Part shown: one piece after another, positions 9,260 through 25,483 of the stretch
Layout of the letters: the number at the start of each line of letters is the position of its first letter
Position numbering within the stretch: the stretch's first letter is position 1
From: a bacterium
GTDB lineage: Bacteria > Patescibacteriota > Minisyncoccia > Phycocordibacterales > Phycocordibacteraceae
Length of the DNA: 34,798 bases
Direction of reading: 5' to 3'
Assembly (NCBI GenBank): GCA_023264495.1
Contig: JAHFMM010000002.1
Span: 21,177 to 55,974 of the forward strand
Made by a program: the position numbers and the translations under genes
The notes under the pieces: model-generated
Told to the model about the DNA's origin: nothing
What the model saw: only the letters and a program-made list of their open reading frames with translations
The model's database searches: none

Positions 9260-11227
9260 ATGCAGAAGGAACATTGGGGATTTGATACGCGCGACCTTGA
9301 TGCGAGCGTCCGGCCGCAGGACGATCTGTACCGCTATGCTGGCGGCAACTGGCTGAAGAAGAACGAGATACCGGCGGCTGAATCGCGCTGGGGTACGTTC
9401 ATCATGCTGCGATATGAGACGGAGAAGAAGTTGCAGAATCTTGTTAAGGAGATTGGAGCGACCCGCAGAGTCGCGCTCGGCTCTCCAGAACAGATGGTGC
9501 GCGACCTCTATCGCTCGGGGATGGATATGCGCACTCGCGTGAAGCGCGGATTACAGCCGCTCGCGCCGTACCAGAAGATGATCGAAACTGTTCAGACAAC
9601 CGACGATCTCGTCCGGTGCATCGCGGAGCTGCATACGATCGGCATCGGTGCCGTATGGGATGTCGGCATCGATCAAGACATGAAAGACAGCACGAAGAAT
9701 ATTCTCTACCTGAGCCAGGGCGGGCTCGGCATGCCGGACCGCGACTATTATCTAAACGATGATGCGGAGTCGCGGCGCGTGCGTACCGCGTACCGCCCGC
9801 ATGTCGCGCGTATGCTCACGCTCACCGGAATGACGAAGACAGAAGCGGCAGCTGCGGCAGAAACGGTGTTTACCATCGAATACAAACTCGCACAAGCCTC
9901 GATGAGGAAGGAGGATGCGCGCGACATGGACAAGATCTATCACAAGAAGACGGTTGCCGGGCTCGCTCGCATAGCGCCAAAGATCGCATGGAAGAAATAT
10001 TTCTCTCTCATCGGGGCCGGCAAGCCATCTTCGCTCATCGTGTGCCAGCCGGATTTCTTTGCCGCTGTAGGACGAGAGATGGCGGAGCTCTCAATAGCTC
10101 AGTGGCGCACCTATCTTTCGTGGCACCTGCTCGCAAGCTTTGCAAGCTTCCTTACTCCCGAGATCGAGAAGCAAAACTTCAGATTCTACGGCACGGTAAT
10201 GGCCGGCGTGAAGACGATGCGCCCGCCTTGGCGGCGCGTCCTCTCAGTAACCAATGCCGGCCTCGGGGAACTTATTGGCAAGGTGTATGTCGCAAGATAT
10301 TTTACTCCTGAGACGAAACGCCGCGTGAATGCGATGGTTGACGACATAAGTGTCGCGTATGAAGCGCGTCTCAGGCGGCTTGGCTGGATGAGTCCGGCAA
10401 CCAAGAAGCAGGCGCTCAAGAAATTACATAGCATGATACGGAAGATCGGCTACCCTGCGCGCTGGAAGTCGTATACAGGGCTCCGCATCACGCAAAACGA
10501 TTACGCAGGAAACGTATTGCGCACGACCCGTTTTGAACATCGCCGCGCGATGCGCAAACTCACGAAACCGGTTAACCGAAGCGAGTGGTATATGAACCCG
10601 CAATCGGTCAATGCCTACTACAGTTTCGGGTTGAACGATATCGTCTTCCCCGCCGCCATCCTGCAACCGCCATTCTTCGATCCTGCCGCTGACGATGCGG
10701 TGAATTACGGCGCGATAGGTATGACGATCGGCCATGAGATGACGCACGGCTTTGATGATCAAGGATCGAAGTTTGATGCGCAGGGCAATATGAAAAACTG
10801 GTGGACCGTCACCGACCGCAAACGTTTTATGCAGAAGGCACAGCCTCTTATAAAACAATTTAATACCTACACCGTCGCGCATGGCGTCCGCGTGAATGGC
10901 AAGCTCACGCTCGGCGAGAATATCGCCGACCTCGGCGGACTCTCGATTGCCTATGATGCCTACCAGCGCTGTCTCGCGCGCACGGGGCGCCGCGATATAG
11001 GCGGCTTCACGCCCGAGCAACGATTCTTCCTCGGCTTCACGCTCTTCGAACGCGAGAAGGCGCGGCCCGAGATCGAGAAGATGCTCGCGATCAACGATCC
11101 TCACTCACCAGCGGTCTTCCGCATCAATGGCCCCGTCTCAAACCTCCCCGAGTTCTATGCTGCCTTCGGCGTGAAGAAGGGCGACAAGCTCTACCGCGCC
11201 CCTAAAGACCGCATCAAGATCTGGTAA
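9260..11227 (+). CDS. M13 family zinc metallopeptidase (PepO/neprilysin-like), no signal peptide
   Basis: QGGLGMPDRDYY, VNAYY, FPAAILQPPFF, GHEMTHGFDDQG (HExxH), GENIADLGG, DPHSP. Confidence 0.96.
   Translation: MQKEHWGFDTRDLDASVRPQDDLYRYAGGNWLKKNEIPAAESRWGTFIMLRYETEKKLQNLVKEIGATRRVALGSPEQMVRDLYRSGMDMRTRVKRGLQPLAPYQKMIETVQTTDDLVRCIAELHTIGIGAVWDVGIDQDMKDSTKNILYLSQGGLGMPDRDYYLNDDAESRRVRTAYRPHVARMLTLTGMTKTEAAAAAETVFTIEYKLAQASMRKEDARDMDKIYHKKTVAGLARIAPKIAWKKYFSLIGAGKPSSLIVCQPDFFAAVGREMAELSIAQWRTYLSWHLLASFASFLTPEIEKQNFRFYGTVMAGVKTMRPPWRRVLSVTNAGLGELIGKVYVARYFTPETKRRVNAMVDDISVAYEARLRRLGWMSPATKKQALKKLHSMIRKIGYPARWKSYTGLRITQNDYAGNVLRTTRFEHRRAMRKLTKPVNRSEWYMNPQSVNAYYSFGLNDIVFPAAILQPPFFDPAADDAVNYGAIGMTIGHEMTHGFDDQGSKFDAQGNMKNWWTVTDRKRFMQKAQPLIKQFNTYTVAHGVRVNGKLTLGENIADLGGLSIAYDAYQRCLARTGRRDIGGFTPEQRFFLGFTLFEREKARPEIEKMLAINDPHSPAVFRINGPVSNLPEFYAAFGVKKGDKLYRAPKDRIKIW
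11204..11227 (+). repeat. 24-bp direct repeat, copy 1 (last 8 codons of the M13 peptidase gene)
   Basis: aaagaccgcatcaagatctggtaa, identical to 13586-13609. Confidence 0.97.
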
Positions 11228-11286
11228 AAGAAAACGCCACCCGCAGCCGAAGCGTTGGGTGGCAGTTGAAGATGGAGTATGGGGAT
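11226..11286 (-). terminator. Cassette 3' module and terminator, purH-like copy
   Basis: After TGA: atccccatactccatcttcaact-gccaccc...gggtggc-gttttctttt; homologous to 12014-12063. Confidence 0.75.
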
Positions 11287-11877
11287 TCAGTTGCTGCTAT
11301 ACAGATACGCCGATGAAATCTGACAGTACCGTGCGACAACTGCTTCTGCCATAGCGGCGTATTGAGATACGAACTTCTTTGCCTGTGTCGGATCAACCGC
11401 CCCACGTTCGACATCATAGATGTGGCGTAACACTTCGTCGAGTTGATCATTGGAGCTGACCACAATCCGCCGTCCTTTTGCTGCAGAACGGAGCATCGTC
11501 GGTCCGCCAATATCAGTCTTCGCACGAACTGATTCAGGAGTGTGATCCAGTTTCGCGATTTCTTCCTTGAGTGGGTAGAGATCAACGTATACCAGATCAA
11601 TGCGTGGGATACCGATACGGTTGAGCTCCTCCTGCTCCTCGGGTGAATCATCGGCGAGAAGAGCGGCATGCACCTCGCGCGACAAGGTCACAACTTTGTG
11701 CCCAAGGATCGGTTGGCCGACGATCTCGGCAACGTCCTGAATCGGTATTCCGTGTTCCGTAAGATGTTTTGCCGTACCCGCTGAACCAAGCAGGTGCCAT
11801 CCCAGTTGGTGAAGGCTTCTTGCGAAGTCCGCCAAGCCTGTCTTATCGTAGGCCGATAGTAACGCTGTCTTCCTCAT
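11287..11877 (-). CDS. Stand-alone PurH N-terminal (IMP cyclohydrolase/MGS-like) domain protein
   Basis: ALLSAYDKTGL, GTAKHL, IDLVYVDLYP, DIGGPTMLRSAAK; it ends at 196 aa with no AICAR transformylase domain. Confidence 0.85.
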   Translation of the reverse strand: MRKTALLSAYDKTGLADFARSLHQLGWHLLGSAGTAKHLTEHGIPIQDVAEIVGQPILGHKVVTLSREVHAALLADDSPEEQEELNRIGIPRIDLVYVDLYPLKEEIAKLDHTPESVRAKTDIGGPTMLRSAAKGRRIVVSSNDQLDEVLRHIYDVERGAVDPTQAKKFVSQYAAMAEAVVARYCQISSAYLYSSN

Positions 11878-11932
11878 GGTATTTCCCCCATTCGTATTTC
11901 AGAAACGCCGGATGGCACTCCTGTACATCTGG

Positions 11933-12008
11933 GCGGATAGTACCTAACTTTTTCAACTCACACAAGCCAGCGAGGCGAGGCCTTGATATCAAGGCCTCGC
12001 CTCGCTGG
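11933..12008 (-). promoter_or_regulatory. Cassette 5' module, copy A: 42-bp perfect palindrome plus promoter TTGTGT-N17-TACTAT
   Basis: 11933-12007 matches 13506-13580 at 74 of 75 nt; palindrome 11967-12008; -35 at 11960-11965; -10 at 11937-11942. Confidence 0.85.
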
Positions 12009-12013
12009 GTTTG

Positions 12014-12063
12014 AAAAACTAACGCCACCGGGGAGGTGGCGTTGGAGGGTGGAGCATGGGGAT
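12014..12063 (-). terminator. Cassette 3' module and terminator, thrC copy
   Basis: After TGA: atccccatgctccaccctcc-aacgccacc-tcccc-ggtggcgtt-agttttt. Confidence 0.75.
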
Positions 12064-13449
12064 TCAGACATGCTCCATAATGTACTGCTTGATTACCGCC
12101 GGGTCTGCTGGCACGCGCGTGATGTGCTCTGGCAGGGTGCCGAACATCTCATACCCTTTCGGGATAGGAGGTTCGACCTCAAGCGCCTCACGGATAGTAT
12201 CGGCAAATTTCGCCGGATGAGCCGTTTCTGCGACGATGAGTGGCACATCCGTATGTGTGTACTGGTAGTCGAATGCCACCTTCATCCCCACGGCGGTGTG
12301 CGGGTCTATGGTTGCGCCATATCCCGTGTATACCGTGCGAATCGTACGGATGACTTCTTCGTCGGTTGCCGAGCCAGAACAGAATCCGTCCAAGGATTGG
12401 CTTTTGTCGCTCATCACGAATCTTCCTATGAGCTGAAGCGTATCCAAGAGAAGCCGGAGACGGTATGCATCGCGATCGACACAGTCGAACATGAGCCGTT
12501 CGAAGTTCGATGCCGAGGCGATATCCATCGACGGGCTGGAGGTGATCTTCACATCATCTCCCGCACGTATGCGGTAGAAACCATAACGGAAGAATTCGTG
12601 CAACACGTCGTTTTCATTCGTTGCAACGATGATATTCCTTATCGGGAATCCCATCCGCTTGGCAATGTACGCCGACAATGCATTGCCGAAGTTGCCCGAA
12701 GGCACCGACACGTCAATCACGTCTCCCGGTTTCTTGGTCGCTTGCAATGAAGCATATGCCCAATACACCACCTGTGCCGCGATGCGGGCCCAATTGATCG
12801 AGTTTACGGCACCGATCCGATGCTTCTCCTTGAAGCAGGCATCAGCATTCACTGCCTTCACTATCGCTTGGCAGTCATCGAAGTTTCCGTCTACCACGAG
12901 GTTGTGGATTGATGGATCGTTCAAGCTGTACATCTGCTGCTGTTGGAACCTGCTCATACGGCCATACGGAGAGAGCATGAAGACTTGCATGCCTTCTCTC
13001 CCCCTGTACGCATATTCAGCGGCCGAACCCGTATCGCCAGACGTTGCGCCGAGAATATTGAGCTTCTCGTCCTTCTCGCGCAGCACGTACTCCATCAAGC
13101 GGCCGAGCAATTGCAATGCCTGATCTTTGAATGAAAGCGTAGGACCATTCGAAAGGGCAAGCAACGCAAGGTCTTCGTCCAACCACTTGAGATGTGGAGC
13201 CATATTTGGTGTATAGGTTCTTGCAATGATCTTGTTCAGCTCAACCGTGGGGATATCGTCGATGAAATCCGCAAGGATGATCTGTGCGGCCTGGGTGTAA
13301 TTCAGGCCACGCATAGTATCTATCGTGCCCTCATGGTATTGCGGGTATTCTTCAGGAACGAACAGTCCGCCGTCAGGCGCGAGGCCTGCGAGCAGAACAT
13401 CCTTGAAACTTTGGGGCGGCGTAAGGCCGCGAGTCGATACATATCGCAT
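12064..13449 (-). CDS. thrC: Threonine synthase
   Basis: MRYVSTRG, GLAPDGGLFVP, GPTLSFKD (PLP lysine), ATSGDTGSAA, NSINWARI, VPSGNFGN, SPSMDI, ETAHPAKF; SD GAGGAG. Confidence 0.96.
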   Translation of the reverse strand: MRYVSTRGLTPPQSFKDVLLAGLAPDGGLFVPEEYPQYHEGTIDTMRGLNYTQAAQIILADFIDDIPTVELNKIIARTYTPNMAPHLKWLDEDLALLALSNGPTLSFKDQALQLLGRLMEYVLREKDEKLNILGATSGDTGSAAEYAYRGREGMQVFMLSPYGRMSRFQQQQMYSLNDPSIHNLVVDGNFDDCQAIVKAVNADACFKEKHRIGAVNSINWARIAAQVVYWAYASLQATKKPGDVIDVSVPSGNFGNALSAYIAKRMGFPIRNIIVATNENDVLHEFFRYGFYRIRAGDDVKITSSPSMDIASASNFERLMFDCVDRDAYRLRLLLDTLQLIGRFVMSDKSQSLDGFCSGSATDEEVIRTIRTVYTGYGATIDPHTAVGMKVAFDYQYTHTDVPLIVAETAHPAKFADTIREALEVEPPIPKGYEMFGTLPEHITRVPADPAVIKQYIMEHV

Positions 13450-13505
13450 AATCCATACTCCTCAAGTCATTTCAGGAACGCGGGATCGCGTTCCTGTACA
13501 TCCAT

Positions 13506-13580
13506 GCGGATAGTACCTAACTTTTTCAACTCACACAAGCCAGCGAGGCGAGGCCTTGATATCGAGGCCTCGCCTCGCTG
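13506..13580 (-). promoter_or_regulatory. Cassette 5' module, copy B: palindrome plus promoter
   Basis: Near-identical to 11933-12007, with a single a/g difference in the palindrome. Confidence 0.85.
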
Positions 13581-13585
13581 AGTTC

Positions 13586-13609
13586 AAAGACCGCATCAAG
13601 ATCTGGTAA
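13586..13609 (+). repeat. 24-bp direct repeat, copy 2
   Basis: aaagaccgcatcaagatctggtaa, identical to 11204-11227. Confidence 0.97.
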
Positions 13610-13634
13610 GTATATACATATATGTACGCTTAGG

Positions 13635-14324
13635 CTAAAGCCAATCAATCGGGCTTTTGCCGTGGGCGGTGAGATAATCGTTTGCCTGGCTGAAGTGCTT
13701 GCAACCGAAGAAGCCGGAATGTGCTGAAAGGGGCGAGGGGTGCGAAGCTTCAAGAACAAGATGCTTCGAGCGGTCTATGTGCGCTCCCTTAGTGCGGGCG
13801 TAGTTTCCCCACAGCATGAAGACAAGATGTTCGCGCTTCTCGGAGAGCGCGCGGATCACCGCATCGGTAAATATTTCCCACCCGCGACCCTGATGCGAGC
13901 CGGCGGCGTGCGCACGAACGGTAAGCGTTGCGTTGAGGAGAAGGACGCCCTGCTTCGCCCATCGCGTCAAATCTCCATCGGTGTGTACGAGCGCCTGTCT
14001 GCCAGCAGGCAGAGCTTGTCCGAGGTCAGTTTCGATTTCTTTGAAGATATTCTGGAGCGATGGCGGGACTCGGACATCTTCTTGCACTGCAAAGGCGAGG
14101 CCATTCGCTTGTCCGGCGCCGTGATACGGGTCTTGTCCGAGAATAACGACCTTCACAGCATCAAACGGACAAAGATCAAAAGTGCGGAAGATATTTTTCG
14201 GCGCCGGATAAACGATAGTTTCTTTGTATTCCTTCTTTACGAAGGCAGTGAGCTCAGTGAAATAGGGTTGCGAAAATGTGTCTCTCAATTCCCTTTTCCA
14301 TGACGACTCGATAACAACGTTCAT
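13635..14324 (-). CDS. ung: Uracil-DNA glycosylase (family 1)
   Basis: VVILGQDPYHG, PPSLQNI, QGVLLLNATLTV, HPSPLSA. Confidence 0.97.
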   Translation of the reverse strand: MNVVIESSWKRELRDTFSQPYFTELTAFVKKEYKETIVYPAPKNIFRTFDLCPFDAVKVVILGQDPYHGAGQANGLAFAVQEDVRVPPSLQNIFKEIETDLGQALPAGRQALVHTDGDLTRWAKQGVLLLNATLTVRAHAAGSHQGRGWEIFTDAVIRALSEKREHLVFMLWGNYARTKGAHIDRSKHLVLEASHPSPLSAHSGFFGCKHFSQANDYLTAHGKSPIDWL

Positions 14325-15103
14325 TTCTGCTGCTCGCGATGGAGTTCGAGGAGTTTCTTCCCCGCATGTTCACGGTAGGGGCAATATTCACACCGCTCTC
14401 CGCTCGCAGGAATATGATCAGATATGAGGCATGCTTTCAATTTCTGTAAGGCTCCAAATATCCATGCGTCATCGCCATCATATGGGAGAATGGTAATATC
14501 AAATTCCAGTTTGCCGTCAAAGGCTTCTTTGTCATTTCGGCCGTTCGCGTAGACGAAATAAGCGGTTGGTGAGACGGTAAAGCCATTTTGCCGGAAGAGC
14601 CATTGATAAATCTCGACTTGCCGCTTGTATTGGATCTTCCACTCGTCATCGAGCGTTATCTCCTTCTTCCCGGCGGTGGCTTTGTAGTCAACGATATGGA
14701 GTTCGCCAGCCGAGTTCACCCACACATCGTCGATGCCGCCACGGAGAGCGATATTCGTCTCAGGATCGTGGTACTTGATGCCGCGCCGCAGCGCATCGCG
14801 CCATTCTTCAAGCCGTTCGTGCGCATACGGGATCGCGTCGATGCCGTAACGCTTCATGAGCGGATGCGCCTCGCCTTTCGCGCGGCGGACATCAAACTCC
14901 CGCTTGAAGAGCACGTCGACCGCGTTATTGAGGGTGAAAGGCGGCGTGTCAGGCCGGCCGATGCCGTGACGTGCTTCTATCCAGAAGCAGCGCGGGCATT
15001 CGAGAAACCGATCAAGCTTCGACCGAGAGATAGTATACGGTTCGTTTGAAGCAGGATCGAATCTCACTCGCACCCCTTTCAGTTTGTATCCGGCGAAGGG
15101 CAT
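14321..15103 (-). CDS. PD-(D/E)XK nuclease family protein (RecB/Cas4-like, 4 Cys)
   Basis: SRSKLDRFLECPRCF, GGIDD...IVDYK, QVEIY, CEYCPY. Confidence 0.85.
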   Translation of the reverse strand: MPFAGYKLKGVRVRFDPASNEPYTISRSKLDRFLECPRCFWIEARHGIGRPDTPPFTLNNAVDVLFKREFDVRRAKGEAHPLMKRYGIDAIPYAHERLEEWRDALRRGIKYHDPETNIALRGGIDDVWVNSAGELHIVDYKATAGKKEITLDDEWKIQYKRQVEIYQWLFRQNGFTVSPTAYFVYANGRNDKEAFDGKLEFDITILPYDGDDAWIFGALQKLKACLISDHIPASGERCEYCPYREHAGKKLLELHREQQK

Positions 15104-15105
15104 GA

Positions 15106-15582
15106 TTAGTCGGTCGTGGTGAAGTGCGCGATGGCCGGACGGCTTGTCATGAAGTCGATATAGACACTGTCACTTGAGAGATCGAAAACGTTGTCGCCGT
15201 CATCACGATACAGTTCCACTGCATAGGTGAGTCCCGGTTCGGTTGCACGAAGGAGAGAGACGGTGAATTGGCTCCGCGGACCTGTTGCGCGAGCCGCACC
15301 AAGCACATTGCCGAGCATGTCGCCATTCATCTCGCGGACCGCAATCCAGACTCCCGGCGGCGGTACGGTAACCGACTCAATAGCGACAGCAGATCCCGCC
15401 GGCTGATTGGCAACGGAAACGGCCCCGCTCTCAGAGGATTGCTGCGATTCGTTTGCTGATATGTTCTGAGGAAGTTGAGAAAACAGCGAGAAAGATGTCC
15501 CGTCAAGGAACCATGCCCCCGCAAGAAGCATGCCGAGCATAGTACCGGCGACAAACGAGTATAGGGAGAAGCTCTTTGTCAT
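15106..15582 (-). CDS. Hypothetical exported or membrane-anchored protein
   Basis: N-terminal hydrophobic segment followed by a beta-rich domain (GVWIAV, GNVLGAA, LYRDDGDNVFD); ATGA-coupled within the operon. Confidence 0.75.
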   Translation of the reverse strand: MTKSFSLYSFVAGTMLGMLLAGAWFLDGTSFSLFSQLPQNISANESQQSSESGAVSVANQPAGSAVAIESVTVPPPGVWIAVREMNGDMLGNVLGAARATGPRSQFTVSLLRATEPGLTYAVELYRDDGDNVFDLSSDSVYIDFMTSRPAIAHFTTTD

Positions 15583-16448
15583 ACCGACATACTACTATGA
15601 ACAATGTCTGGAAGCGACAAGAGCCCGTCTGCCTCAGCAAGGAGCTCCCCGACCCGCTCCGGCGAGAGATGCAGCAGGTCGAGCTTCCTCCGATCCTTCA
15701 GGATCTCATCTACCGCAATGACGCCAGCATCAACTAAGAGATGTTTCTCCGCTCCCGATATCCCAGTCAAGGTTGTTATGGGATACACTTTCGCACGGCT
15801 CATACGGATGAGGAGTGATTCGTGATGCGGGTACCCCCATCCGAGGAGCTCAACGCCGGCGCACTCGGCGTACGCGATCGCTTCAGAAGTGAATTTCGTA
15901 TTCGTGATCAGGATGCCGCGGTCGATCGGACATGCGCGACTATCTGATGCGCACGAGAAAATATCGTCGAACCGGCTCTTCACATACAGCGCGACCTTGA
16001 GGTCAGTCTTATAATTCGGATCGTTATGGTACTTGAGTTCAGCCGCAAGGAACATGTTTTGCTCGGGATGCGATGCATAAAAATCAACTTCGTGTGTTAC
16101 GCATGCTCCGCGCATCATCTTGCGGGTCTCAACCTGCCACCCTTCGGCCCGATAGAGATGAGAGATGAAATCTTCGAAAGGGTGTCCTGACGGCCCGAAC
16201 TCAAGAAGCGCGCGGCGGAGCAGGTAACGGGCGGCAACCGGACGTGCCTCTTTGCGCAGGAGGGTGAAAGCGCGGCGATAGATCTCTCGAGAGGACGTAC
16301 CCGGGACAATGGTCGCAGCGACCGCTTCAGTGATGCGCTCGGCGGTGTGCTGACCGGCACCTGCTTGCTCAAGCGAGATGGTGAGTCGCATTGGGTTGAA
16401 TGGCTGGTGCGATCCGTCACCGGTAACGATGTCGGGTGTCGGTATCAT
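15579..16448 (-). CDS. ATP-cone domain fused to a restriction-endonuclease-like (Mrr-type) domain
   Basis: N-terminal GDGSHQPFNP...SLEQAGA (degenerate ATP cone); GHPFEDFI, HEVD, AELKYHN, LITNTKFTSEAIAYAEC. Confidence 0.75.
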   Translation of the reverse strand: MIPTPDIVTGDGSHQPFNPMRLTISLEQAGAGQHTAERITEAVAATIVPGTSSREIYRRAFTLLRKEARPVAARYLLRRALLEFGPSGHPFEDFISHLYRAEGWQVETRKMMRGACVTHEVDFYASHPEQNMFLAAELKYHNDPNYKTDLKVALYVKSRFDDIFSCASDSRACPIDRGILITNTKFTSEAIAYAECAGVELLGWGYPHHESLLIRMSRAKVYPITTLTGISGAEKHLLVDAGVIAVDEILKDRRKLDLLHLSPERVGELLAEADGLLSLPDIVHSSMSV

Positions 16449-24350: not shown

Positions 24351-24381
24351 TAACTTGCCAGGGAAGTCAGACTTCCCTGGC
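24351..24381 (+). repeat. 31-bp direct repeat, copy 1 (truncated palindrome)
   Basis: taacttgccagggaagtcagacttccctggc, identical to 25445-25475. Confidence 0.95.
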
Positions 24382-24396
24382 TTGCTCCTCGTTCTG

Positions 24397-25371
24397 CTAA
24401 ATTCCAACAGCGATCCATTTTGCAGGTGTTCTATCTTGGCAATGACCCGCTGTATCGCCTATCCAATAACTAAAGTTTGAAGTAGTGAAACTAGGAACAG
24501 TAAATACTCCGTCAATGTAATTAAGCGTACCTGTTATACTGAAAACGCTGTTATTAAATGGCATCGGAAAAGTAATGGTAGACGCGCATCCATTACCTGC
24601 CGGTATAGAACCCCACTGCATAACGAGACCTCCAGGCATAACTACATAACCATTTGCAGTGAGTGACATTTGACCTCCTGTTCCGATAGGAGTCCCCAAA
24701 GACACACAAGCAAGCAGTGCAACATTGCGAGGACGAGTTTCAATACCGCCTGCCGAATTTGTTACGACTAAACCCTGGTCATATCCAGTATTTTGTACAT
24801 TTGCATAGTATGTGCCTCCAGATGGACCGCCTAGAGACGATTGAGATGGAACGCCATGGCTATGACTCTTAAACATATCGGCTTGCCAGCTTCCAAGGGT
24901 ACGTCCAACATCAACACCTCTCCCACTATCTAGACCACGAACAAACTCTCCTCGCAGATCTGGCGTTCCGTTTGTTCCGTCAGCAGGGATCCATCCAGAG
25001 GGGCAGGTGCTAGCTTTGAAATATGCGATGGCTCCCGCTGAAGTAGCCGATCCGCCAGTGCCTCCGCTCGGCGCGAGCCAACTAGCCTTCCCCGTGCCGT
25101 TCGTCGTGAGGACGTAGCCGGCAGGAGCGGTACTCGCGATCTGGAACGTGGATGCGGCGATAAGGTTCCAACCGGAGATTGCTCCCGTAGAAGTGAAGTT
25201 GCCAGACTTTGCCTGCGCCGTGCCGCTCGTGTTGATAGGCGCTGAGGCGTTCCCGTCAGGGGGGGGTAGTTTCGGTACGGTCCAGGCATAGACCGAGGAG
25301 ATGCCGAAGAGGAGGACGAGGGCCGTGGTGAGCGCTGAGATATTGAAGGCTTGAGAGAGTTTGGTGAGCAT
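24397..25371 (-). CDS. Secreted protein with a phage tail-collar domain and a tail-fibre-tip-like C-terminus
   Basis: Signal peptide; GAIAYF...CPSGW...DG...PDLRGEFVRGLD.GRGVD.GR.LGSWQ...ETRPRNVALLAC (collar); NGYVVMPGGLVMQWG...ITFPMPF...WIAVG (tip). Confidence 0.85.
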   Translation of the reverse strand: MLTKLSQAFNISALTTALVLLFGISSVYAWTVPKLPPPDGNASAPINTSGTAQAKSGNFTSTGAISGWNLIAASTFQIASTAPAGYVLTTNGTGKASWLAPSGGTGGSATSAGAIAYFKASTCPSGWIPADGTNGTPDLRGEFVRGLDSGRGVDVGRTLGSWQADMFKSHSHGVPSQSSLGGPSGGTYYANVQNTGYDQGLVVTNSAGGIETRPRNVALLACVSLGTPIGTGGQMSLTANGYVVMPGGLVMQWGSIPAGNGCASTITFPMPFNNSVFSITGTLNYIDGVFTVPSFTTSNFSYWIGDTAGHCQDRTPAKWIAVGI

Positions 25372-25442
25372 GGTGAGTATTGGCGAATATGCGTACAGTA
25401 TACTCTCGGAACAGGTCTTGATATGCGTTTAGGTGTGGATAA

Positions 25443-25483
25443 CATAACTTGCCAGGGAAGTCAGACTTCCCTGGCAAGTTATG
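25443..25483. repeat. Perfect palindrome with 20-bp arms; contains direct repeat copy 2 and overlaps the ychF stop
   Basis: cataacttgccagggaagtc-a-gacttccctggcaagttatg. Confidence 0.95.

Follow-up and report, generated by a model that had tools for sequence, protein, structure and literature searches.

The region analysed here (the window) is a 34,798-nt stretch of contig C12 (C12:21177–55974) in the metagenome-assembled genome of a bacterium of the candidate phyla radiation (CPR). The assembly comprises 559,921 bp in 31 contigs, has scaffold gaps and is 91.5% complete. A gene for an M13 peptidase and a gene for uracil-DNA glycosylase (ung) converge in the window, and between them lie two minus-strand genes, encoding threonine synthase (ThrC) and a stand-alone inosine monophosphate (IMP) cyclohydrolase domain (IMPCH). 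The 24 nucleotides that end the peptidase gene, AAAGACCGCATCAAGATCTGGTAA, are present twice on the plus strand, at 11204–11227 and 13586–13609, with no mismatches (24/24 positions identical). No third site exists in the window at two or fewer mismatches, and the whole assembly contains these two copies only, at three or fewer mismatches; none of 100 dinucleotide shuffles gave two matches to the 24-mer. The copies start 2382 nt apart and bracket 2,358 bp of DNA (11228–13585). Copy 2 begins 5 nt (AGTTC) past a palindrome at 13541–13580. When the bracketed DNA is taken out together with one copy of the 24-mer, a gap of 25 nt is left between the converging stop codons of the peptidase gene and ung; with the repeat, the insertion keeps the peptidase C-terminus intact.

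The same site was compared in six genomes of the same genus (about 70% DNA identity) that carry both flanking genes on one contig within 7 kb. In genome G022 the gap between the two genes is 0 nt, the stop codons abutting each other; in the other five it measures 663, 1239, 1288, 1477 and 5659 nt and is occupied by unrelated genes (HD-domain proteins, a transposase and others). Neither thrC nor an IMPCH domain is found at the site in any of the six, nor does the peptidase tail recur there over a length of at least 10 nt. The two genes are about 134 kb apart in genome G009. Judged by these sequences, the peptidase/ung site is a variable spot with a demonstrable empty state, and it is highly probable that the 24-bp repeat marks both edges of a real 2,358-bp insertion directly 3′ of the peptidase stop codon. 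A previous sequence-only reading of this DNA had described the exact duplication of the peptidase 3′ end, the distance of 2382 nt, the position of the second copy 5 nt beyond the thrC palindrome and the tidy convergent junction that removal restores, and all of these were reproduced. It had also anticipated a real insertion with an empty site in close relatives and without thrC or purH as ancestral residents; this agrees with the comparison, in which the site is empty or otherwise filled in 6/6 relatives, is empty in G022 and carries neither gene in any of them. Its cassette pair thrC/purH holds for thrC, whereas the other gene corresponds only to the N-terminal IMP-cyclohydrolase/MGS-like domain of PurH (196 aa).

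Independent support for the arrangement comes from Logan contigs of two sequencing runs (X1 and X2), groundwater metagenomes of one study, one of which may be the source sample. Both runs contain 95–96% of the sampled words of 10700–14100. One contig spans 10700–11962 (peptidase gene, repeat copy 1 and IMPCH unit) and another 13506–14100 (palindrome, repeat copy 2 and ung), each in both runs; a third covers 11979–13535 (thrC). Depth is alike over the three parts, being 6.8/7.8/6.0 in X1 and 18.8/19.7/19.3 in X2. All breaks between contigs fall within a 58-nt flank common to both units, and therefore the order of the IMPCH unit before the ThrC unit rests on the original assembly. An assembly artefact or a strain chimera is a very improbable source of the structure. 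Such an origin would accord with a metagenome-assembled genome with scaffold gaps, with a unit order that depends on the original assembly and with four clustered differences between the assembly and the runs at 11231–11264; against it, each repeat-bearing junction is crossed by a single contig in two runs, the 24-mer could not create a false join because it is shorter than the 31-letter words of Logan, and in each run the contigs of the peptidase gene, of thrC and of ung are of equal depth. The four differences are substitutions (11231, 11248, 11254 and 11264, within 34 nt) in the terminator hairpin of the IMPCH unit and are seen in both runs at full depth; the remainder of the 1,263-nt contig stretch (10700–11962) is identical between assembly and runs. 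One X2 contig follows the peptidase 3′ end as far as 11233 and then continues into unlike sequence, probably representing a related population with other DNA downstream of the peptidase gene.

The insert consists of a tandem pair of minus-strand transcription units built on the same chassis: the IMPCH domain is encoded in unit A (11228 to about 12012) and ThrC in unit B (about 12013 to 13585). In gene sense, the chassis is composed of a palindrome, a shared upstream segment, a hairpin in the 5′ untranslated region (5′-UTR), the gene, a stop-codon motif and a terminator-like hairpin with a T-run. The palindromes have a perfect core of 40–42 nt and arms of up to 24 nt. The upstream segment and palindrome together make up 116 nt that are 91% identical between A and B (repeat D1). 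The 5′-UTR hairpin has 10 bp and the loop AUCC; in the A/B alignment, changes occur on both sides of the stem, and the folding z-scores are −3.7 and −3.3. The shared motif TGAATCCCCATnCTCCA provides the stop codon in both units. A search of 11000–13800 against Rfam gave no match at E ≤ 1. The shared upstream segment was missed by a sigma-70 promoter scan, and the segment can be called promoter-like only. The features of the locus are listed in the table.

Table. Features of the peptidase/ung locus and of related units elsewhere (window positions, unless a contig is named)
Feature	Position	Strand	Basis
M13 peptidase gene, target (655 aa)	9260..11227	+	open reading frame; PF05649 2.4e-116, PF01431 1.6e-70
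Direct repeat copy 1, last 7 codons of peptidase gene (KDRIKIW) and TAA	11204..11227	+	repeat search
Unit A 3′ flank: TGAATCCCCATnCTCCA (stop codon), terminator-like hairpin, T-run touching repeat copy 1	11228..11286	-	repeat D2 (33 nt, 82%); fold −17.1 kcal/mol, z −2.3
Unit A gene: stand-alone IMP cyclohydrolase/MGS-like domain, 196 aa	11287..11877	-	PF02142 6.9e-13; NF002049 positions 5–193 of 510
Unit A 5′ flank: 10-bp 5′-UTR hairpin (11900–11923, loop AUCC) and shared upstream segment	11878..11963	-	repeat D1; z −3.7; alignment
Unit A palindrome: 24-nt arms, 96% complementary, perfect 42-nt core	11964..12011	.	repeat I2; core C12:33143–33184; identity to C12:20353–20396
Unit B 3′ flank: same stop-codon motif, intrinsic-terminator-like hairpin (12021–12043), then AGTTTTTC	12012..12063	-	terminator scan; −15.8 kcal/mol, z −4.4; repeats D2, D6
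Unit B gene: threonine synthase ThrC, 461 aa	12064..13449	-	PF14821, PF00291, PF24857; TIGR00260 239.8 bits vs cut-off 167.1
Unit B 5′ flank: 5′-UTR hairpin (13463–13486) and shared upstream segment	13450..13540	-	repeats, folds, alignment
Unit B palindrome and AGTTC	13541..13585	.	13559–13585 = reverse complement of last 27 nt of RAYT-like reading frame
Direct repeat copy 2, orphan copy	13586..13609	+	repeat search
Original peptidase/ung spacer, 25 nt, with AT-rich palindromic GTATATACATATATGTAC	13610..13634	.	sequence
ung, uracil-DNA glycosylase gene (229 aa), converging on peptidase gene	13635..14324	-	PF03167 1.2e-17
tRNA-downstream unit copies, outside the window	C11:71043–71240, C12:14571–14798, C15:1735–1929, C30:48–255 of this genome (G000); loci L101, L102, L103, L105, L106, L114 of relatives

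To the extent that a 91.5%-complete genome can show it, each cargo enzyme is an orphan last step of its pathway, because the genome has no AICAR formyltransferase domain (AICARFT, PF01808) elsewhere and no thrB. ThrC occurs in 9 of the 221 other species of the genus, at 45–57% identity and in a different neighbourhood each time, and no repeats of 15 nt or more surround thrC in these nine relatives (the longest measures 14 nt). The IMPCH domain occurs in 16 of the 221, mostly inside a full-length PurH of about 530 aa. This patchy distribution of both cargo genes within the genus speaks for an insertion. The nearest relatives of ThrC in a large protein collection are 57–68% identical; those with names belong to Candidatus Kaiserbacteria, followed by Burkholderiales at 53–55%. 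The codon usage of thrC is ordinary for the genome (46th percentile), and the IMPCH gene lies at the 13th percentile.

The palindrome of the cassettes leads to a transposase gene on the same contig. Elsewhere in the genome it is found only at C12:20353–20396, about 800 nt before the window, with a half copy at C12:19657–19676; the family thus has three genomic copies, among 179 palindromes in the genome, some of which have longer arms. Between the half and the full palindrome, 12 kb upstream of the insert, lies an open reading frame (ORF) of 227 aa (C12:19692–20375) for a Y1 transposase like those of IS200 and of the repetitive extragenic palindrome (REP)-associated tyrosine transposases (RAYTs). 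The last codons of this ORF form the left arm of the palindrome, which combines the 3′ end of the gene with the mirror image of that end. Positions 13541–13585 match the minus strand of C12:20352–20396 at 98%; the homology extends past the palindrome over 5 nt of transposase coding sequence and ends exactly at repeat copy 2. Unit A starts like unit B, with one or two differences. Since the palindrome and the adjoining 5 nt match the inverted 3′ end of the Y1 gene, the chassis derives from that end. Each unit thus has at its outer end the same 40-nt palindrome that closes the Y1 gene, and in this respect its hairpins are cognate to the enzyme gene. An upstream region of the RAYT gene suspected by eye to be homologous to the upstream segment of the units was not supported by alignment.

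Among aligned homologues of the 227-aa protein, 25 of 26 match PF01797 (best 5.4e-11), and N84, H85, H87 and Y145 are invariant; we take H85 and H87 to be the HUH motif and Y145 the catalytic tyrosine. The sole match of the homologue profile in the PDB is E. coli TnpArep (4ER8, E 0.77). A sequence search of PDB chains with the protein itself returned pyruvate kinase at chance level and was set aside. The genome has nine Y1 genes, each with its own palindrome family scattered intergenically, REPIN-like doublets included; it also has REP- and REPIN-like palindrome families of 4–14 copies. A typical RAYT is a single-copy gene that lies between two inverted REPs and has many dispersed REP copies; here, the gene has a full palindrome downstream and a half copy upstream, the palindrome is present three times, the match to NF047646 is sub-threshold (28 bits), and the genome has nine Y1 genes. 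On sequence grounds, the chassis appears to belong to the REP/RAYT-like system of this genome. Compared with the 221 other species of the genus, the 186-nt region between the units finds only 18–26 nt of the palindrome core, in six species; the half-palindrome match in genome G187 is the 3′ end of a RAYT orthologue.

Two further arrangements of ORFs and palindromes were observed. At 24357–25483 of the window (C12:45533–46659), a 324-aa minus-strand ORF lies between two GCCAGGGAAGTCAGACTTCCCTGGC palindromes, of the family of a different Y1 gene, on contig C6. At C30:2238–3740, the small palindrome GTATCAAGGCCTCGCCTTGATA, of the same family as the cassette palindrome, lies on either side of two ORFs (175 and 255 aa).

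The Y1 transposase unit has a perfect flanking repeat as well, of 19 bp (ACTTTTCTGTATGCAAAAT, C12:19627 and 20405). On the right, 7–8 nt separate the palindrome from the repeat copy, and the half-palindrome lies 11 nt from the left edge of the unit. This repeat matches its own target upstream of dnaJ and is unrelated to the 24-mer. With matched ends, dnaJ and the next gene are about 10–270 nt apart in eight relatives, none of which has a transposase gene between them, as opposed to 1,000–1,300 nt here; because the ends lie so much closer in the relatives, the RAYT unit is regarded as an insertion.

The distribution of repeats within 45 nt of the 179 palindromes equals that at random positions, except at one tRNA-Asn site. 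In front of the tRNA-Asn(GTT) gene there (C3:12040–12115; 340–412 of locus L091, minus strand), the first 23 nt of the gene and 4–5 upstream nt are present in a second, perfect copy. The copy is interrupted by a perfect 20-nt palindrome, CCTGCCTGCCGGCAGGCAGG, of a family of four copies, and a 7-nt filler separates the two copies. The site is a third genomic case of a duplicated gene end beside a palindrome, with a repeat of about 28 nt.

The repeats at the two insertions look like target duplications because two insertions with one palindrome have repeats that are unrelated to each other and that each reproduce the target in question. That they are target duplications of variable length, and not cores of attachment (att) sites, is the more probable view. 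The sequence-only reading had called the repeat 'attL/attR- or TSD-like' (TSD, target-site duplication); the second half of this description fits a repeat that follows its target, whereas the first is not supported, with no tyrosine or serine recombinase found in the genome and a different 19-bp repeat at the sister insertion. Its statement that the element encodes no integrase is correct, there being no recombinase ORF between the repeats, and it did not connect the insert with the RAYT/IS200-like Y1 transposase and its palindrome.

A mechanism can be proposed on this basis. A double-stranded copy of the module would be joined through its 3′ ends, each a few nucleotides past a hairpin, to the two strands of the target, nicked at short pyrimidine-rich sites 19–24 nt apart, that is, about two helical turns. 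Gap filling would duplicate the stretch between the nicks and leave intact the peptidase C-terminus in one case and the dnaJ promoter region in the other. The candidate nuclease would be the cognate Y1 enzyme acting in trans, which goes beyond the known activity of canonical Y1 enzymes; the polarity of HUH chemistry would fit, an element 3′-OH attacking a 5′-phosphotyrosine on the target. If nick positions were fixed by sequence, not by geometry, the repeat length would vary. All eight inferred joining points (four target nicks and four 3′ ends of the elements) have a pyrimidine at −1, an observation made post hoc on two events. Taken as a whole, with insertion, chassis, target duplication and hairpin-end joining, this is the best explanation at present, to which we give a probability of roughly 40%. 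Its enzymatic part, staggered joining mediated by a Y1 enzyme, is possible but on balance unlikely. The broader proposal that hairpin-ended modules derived from IS200/RAYT shuttle complete single-gene units as double-stranded DNA, with variable duplications of about two turns and by undescribed Y1/HUH chemistry, is decidedly speculative.

Several observations weigh against this explanation. Y1-transposase elements are described in the consulted parts of two articles as integrating in single-stranded form, without target-site duplication, 3′ of a short target (PMC4810608, PMC2817692). The reaction would not be a standard Y1 reaction, because canonical Y1 elements and ordinary units of the family leave no duplication: non-palindromic repeats of at least 15 nt flank none of 29 RAYT-like units in relatives (a repeat of 14 nt at one of them may be due to chance), and the other eight Y1 genes of this genome have no such flanking repeats. 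A difference in repeat length between the two events (19 and 24 nt) is unusual for a dedicated transposase, and both events, the only two, lie on one contig of one genome. The 227-aa protein itself matches PF01797 at E 7e-4 with 20.1 bits, under the cut-off of 23, and NF047646 (REP-associated tyrosine transposase) with 28 bits, the cut-off being 80. The full palindrome has no match in collections of genome, metagenome and viral contigs, nor has a 23-nt stretch of the shared flank in the genome and metagenome contig collections, from which records of this genome itself may be left out; since palindrome and flank are absent from these collections, there are no independent copies of the module to compare. 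Neither an empty-site junction (...CTGGTAA to GTATATAC) nor a circle junction is present in the X1 and X2 contigs, which is weak evidence, as contigs drop rare variants. The structure is solid; for the mechanism, the evidence consists of two events from a single genome.

The main rival is template switching, of the type of microhomology-mediated break-induced replication (MMBIR) or fork stalling and template switching (FoSTeS), or else homology-facilitated illegitimate recombination after DNA uptake. A strand that stalled or ended at the foot of a donor hairpin and was rejoined 24 (or 19) nt upstream of its point of departure would produce the duplication with no dedicated enzyme. The junctions do lie at or near hairpin feet (palindrome plus 5 or 8 nt on the right; terminator hairpin at 9 nt and half-palindrome at 11 nt on the left), and the lengths of the repeats vary (19, 24 and, at tRNA-Asn, about 28 nt). 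Recombinases other than Y1 were not found in the genome, such repeats accompany 0/29 ordinary RAYT units in relatives, and the genome-typical codon usage of thrC fits a donor within the lineage. What such switching leaves unaccounted for is that both clean events involve the same three-copy palindrome family out of 179 palindromes; moreover, the right junction has no visible microhomology if the donor ran on like the RAYT gene, and no donor copy was found. We regard this rival as unlikely, somewhat more so than staggered joining by a Y1 enzyme.

It is improbable that a small integrase-less element was recombined into the site through a 24-bp att core with the help of a trans-acting site-specific recombinase. 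A perfect repeat that restores the 3′ end of the target gene, together with the empty site in G022, is what such an event would give, and at 91.5% completeness an integrase could be missing from the genome or reside on an unbinned replicon. No match to PF00589 (tyrosine recombinases) or PF00239 (serine recombinases) was obtained in the genome, however, with controls positive in 14/14 and 12/14 reference genomes, respectively; at the sister insertion, which shares the palindrome, the 19-bp repeat is unrelated and reproduces the target there, and the peptidase-tail repeat recurs in 0/6 relatives. As no tyrosine recombinase domain was found, the genome as assembled has no Xer either. There is an equally small chance that the insert reached this genome by secondary spread through RecA, a circle with one 24-mer, excised in a sibling cell, having reintegrated by a single crossover of the Campbell type. 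The topology fits, the lineage is likely to take up DNA, as is presumed here, and the repeats, at 19–24 bp, are near the minimal length for RecA-dependent exchange in E. coli. This route leaves the origin of the first repeat unexplained and has to be invoked twice, with two different repeats; that no circle or empty-site junction occurs in the contigs also counts against it, though weakly.

The insert shares properties with several known kinds of element. As in integrative islands with att sites, the target gene stays intact thanks to a direct repeat of its 3′ end, and a relative has an empty site. Such islands typically target tRNA or tmRNA genes; here the target is protein-coding, the insert has only 2.4 kb, neither element nor genome has an integrase, and a related element has another repeat. 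With IS200/IS605 and REP/RAYT elements, it shares, by way of the gene 12 kb upstream, a Y1 HUH homologue whose gene is flanked by its own palindrome, element ends a few nucleotides past a hairpin, and non-autonomous relatives that have the end sequence of the enzyme gene. It differs from them in its perfect flanking repeats of 19 and 24 bp and in carrying whole transcription units as cargo, and the two events share no tetranucleotide at their junctions, unlike the fixed rule of a 4–5-nt target. The palindrome is present in three copies, not hundreds as in REP/RAYT systems, and, as a perfect 40-mer, consists of the end of the gene and the mirrored form of that end. A gammaproteobacterial origin of RAYTs is proposed in the consulted part of one article (PMC2817692), whereas the host here is a Kaiserbacteria-like CPR bacterium.

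Integron cassettes are likewise tandem single-gene units, each with a palindromic site, in one orientation and with accessory metabolic genes. Here, there is no IntI, and the palindrome is perfect and upstream of the gene, in contrast to attC, which is imperfect and downstream; each unit appears to have its own upstream control region and terminator, and a long repeat flanks the whole. The core consensus of integrons is GTTRRRY, which the junctions GTTTGAA and GTTCAAA do not fit. In casposons and in CRISPR spacer integration, Cas1 likewise produces long target duplications by attack on strands many base pairs apart. The genome, however, has no match to PF01867 (Cas1), the repeat search found no inverted copy of either insert end, so that terminal inverted repeats are missing, and the length of the duplication varies. 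DDE transposons are bounded by terminal inverted repeats and leave a short duplication whose length is fixed, as opposed to repeats of 19 and 24 bp; PF00665 (rve) and PF01609 (DDE_Tnp_1) had no matches in the genome, other DDE families not having been searched. By analogy, the insert would be most like a non-autonomous, cargo-bearing relative of IS200/RAYT elements, arranged like an integron array and with a Cas1-like duplication, and it fails a defining feature of each. The portions of the literature retrieved by searches on RAYT/REPIN duplications, IS200 palindromes in CPR bacteria and IS605 passengers contained no account of such repeats.

CPR genomes are minimal, and the gain and loss of accessory genes in them are poorly understood. 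Here, two orphan last-step enzymes come in complete transcription units whose common chassis is linked to a REP/RAYT-like system, and long perfect target duplications accompany both the cassette insertion and the insertion of the enzyme gene itself. If the Y1 enzyme were responsible, the repertoire of HUH transposases would be widened, and there would be a testable route for the traffic of gene cassettes in organisms seemingly devoid of integrases. Should the units indeed be shuttled in this way, tiny genomes could gain last-step enzymes at the ends of genes with both neighbours undamaged. A product of repair or template switching would, for its part, be a clean natural case of a palindrome-associated templated insertion.

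Directly past ung, at 14321–16448, lie three minus-strand ORFs: one of 260 aa for a protein of the PD-(D/E)XK nuclease family, one of 158 aa for a DUF7282 protein and one of 289 aa whose product weakly matches Mrr_cat (E 3.8e-05) and ATP-cone (E 0.00033).

Other repeats of gene ends occur beside tRNA genes. A conserved unit of about 85 nt lies 45–70 nt downstream of tRNA genes (Met, Tyr, Phe and Gln) and consists of GGATTCGAACCGCGGGCCGCAG, a 6-bp hairpin with the loop GAAGA, and GTAGGTTTCGAGC..AGCA..GCGAGAGG; next to its 3′ side, the final 19–22 nt of the same tRNA, from C56 of the T loop, are perfectly repeated. In several of these units, the 5′ side carries the reverse complement of part of the tRNA end, comprising at least the T-loop 7-mer GGATTCG/CGAATCC and more in some (Gln, Ser). 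Of the 221 other species, 12 have the unit at E ≤ 1e-3. RNAalifold predicts 25 pairs from eight copies, nine of them with compensatory changes, and Rfam gave no match at E ≤ 1. Because the copies at tRNA-Tyr in three species co-vary with their tRNA, the unit is a maintained element and not a fresh scar. The genome also has one reverse transcriptase gene (C18:33357–33968), adjoined by repeats of 23–26 nt that lie 459 nt apart, an arrangement that suggests a diversity-generating retroelement.

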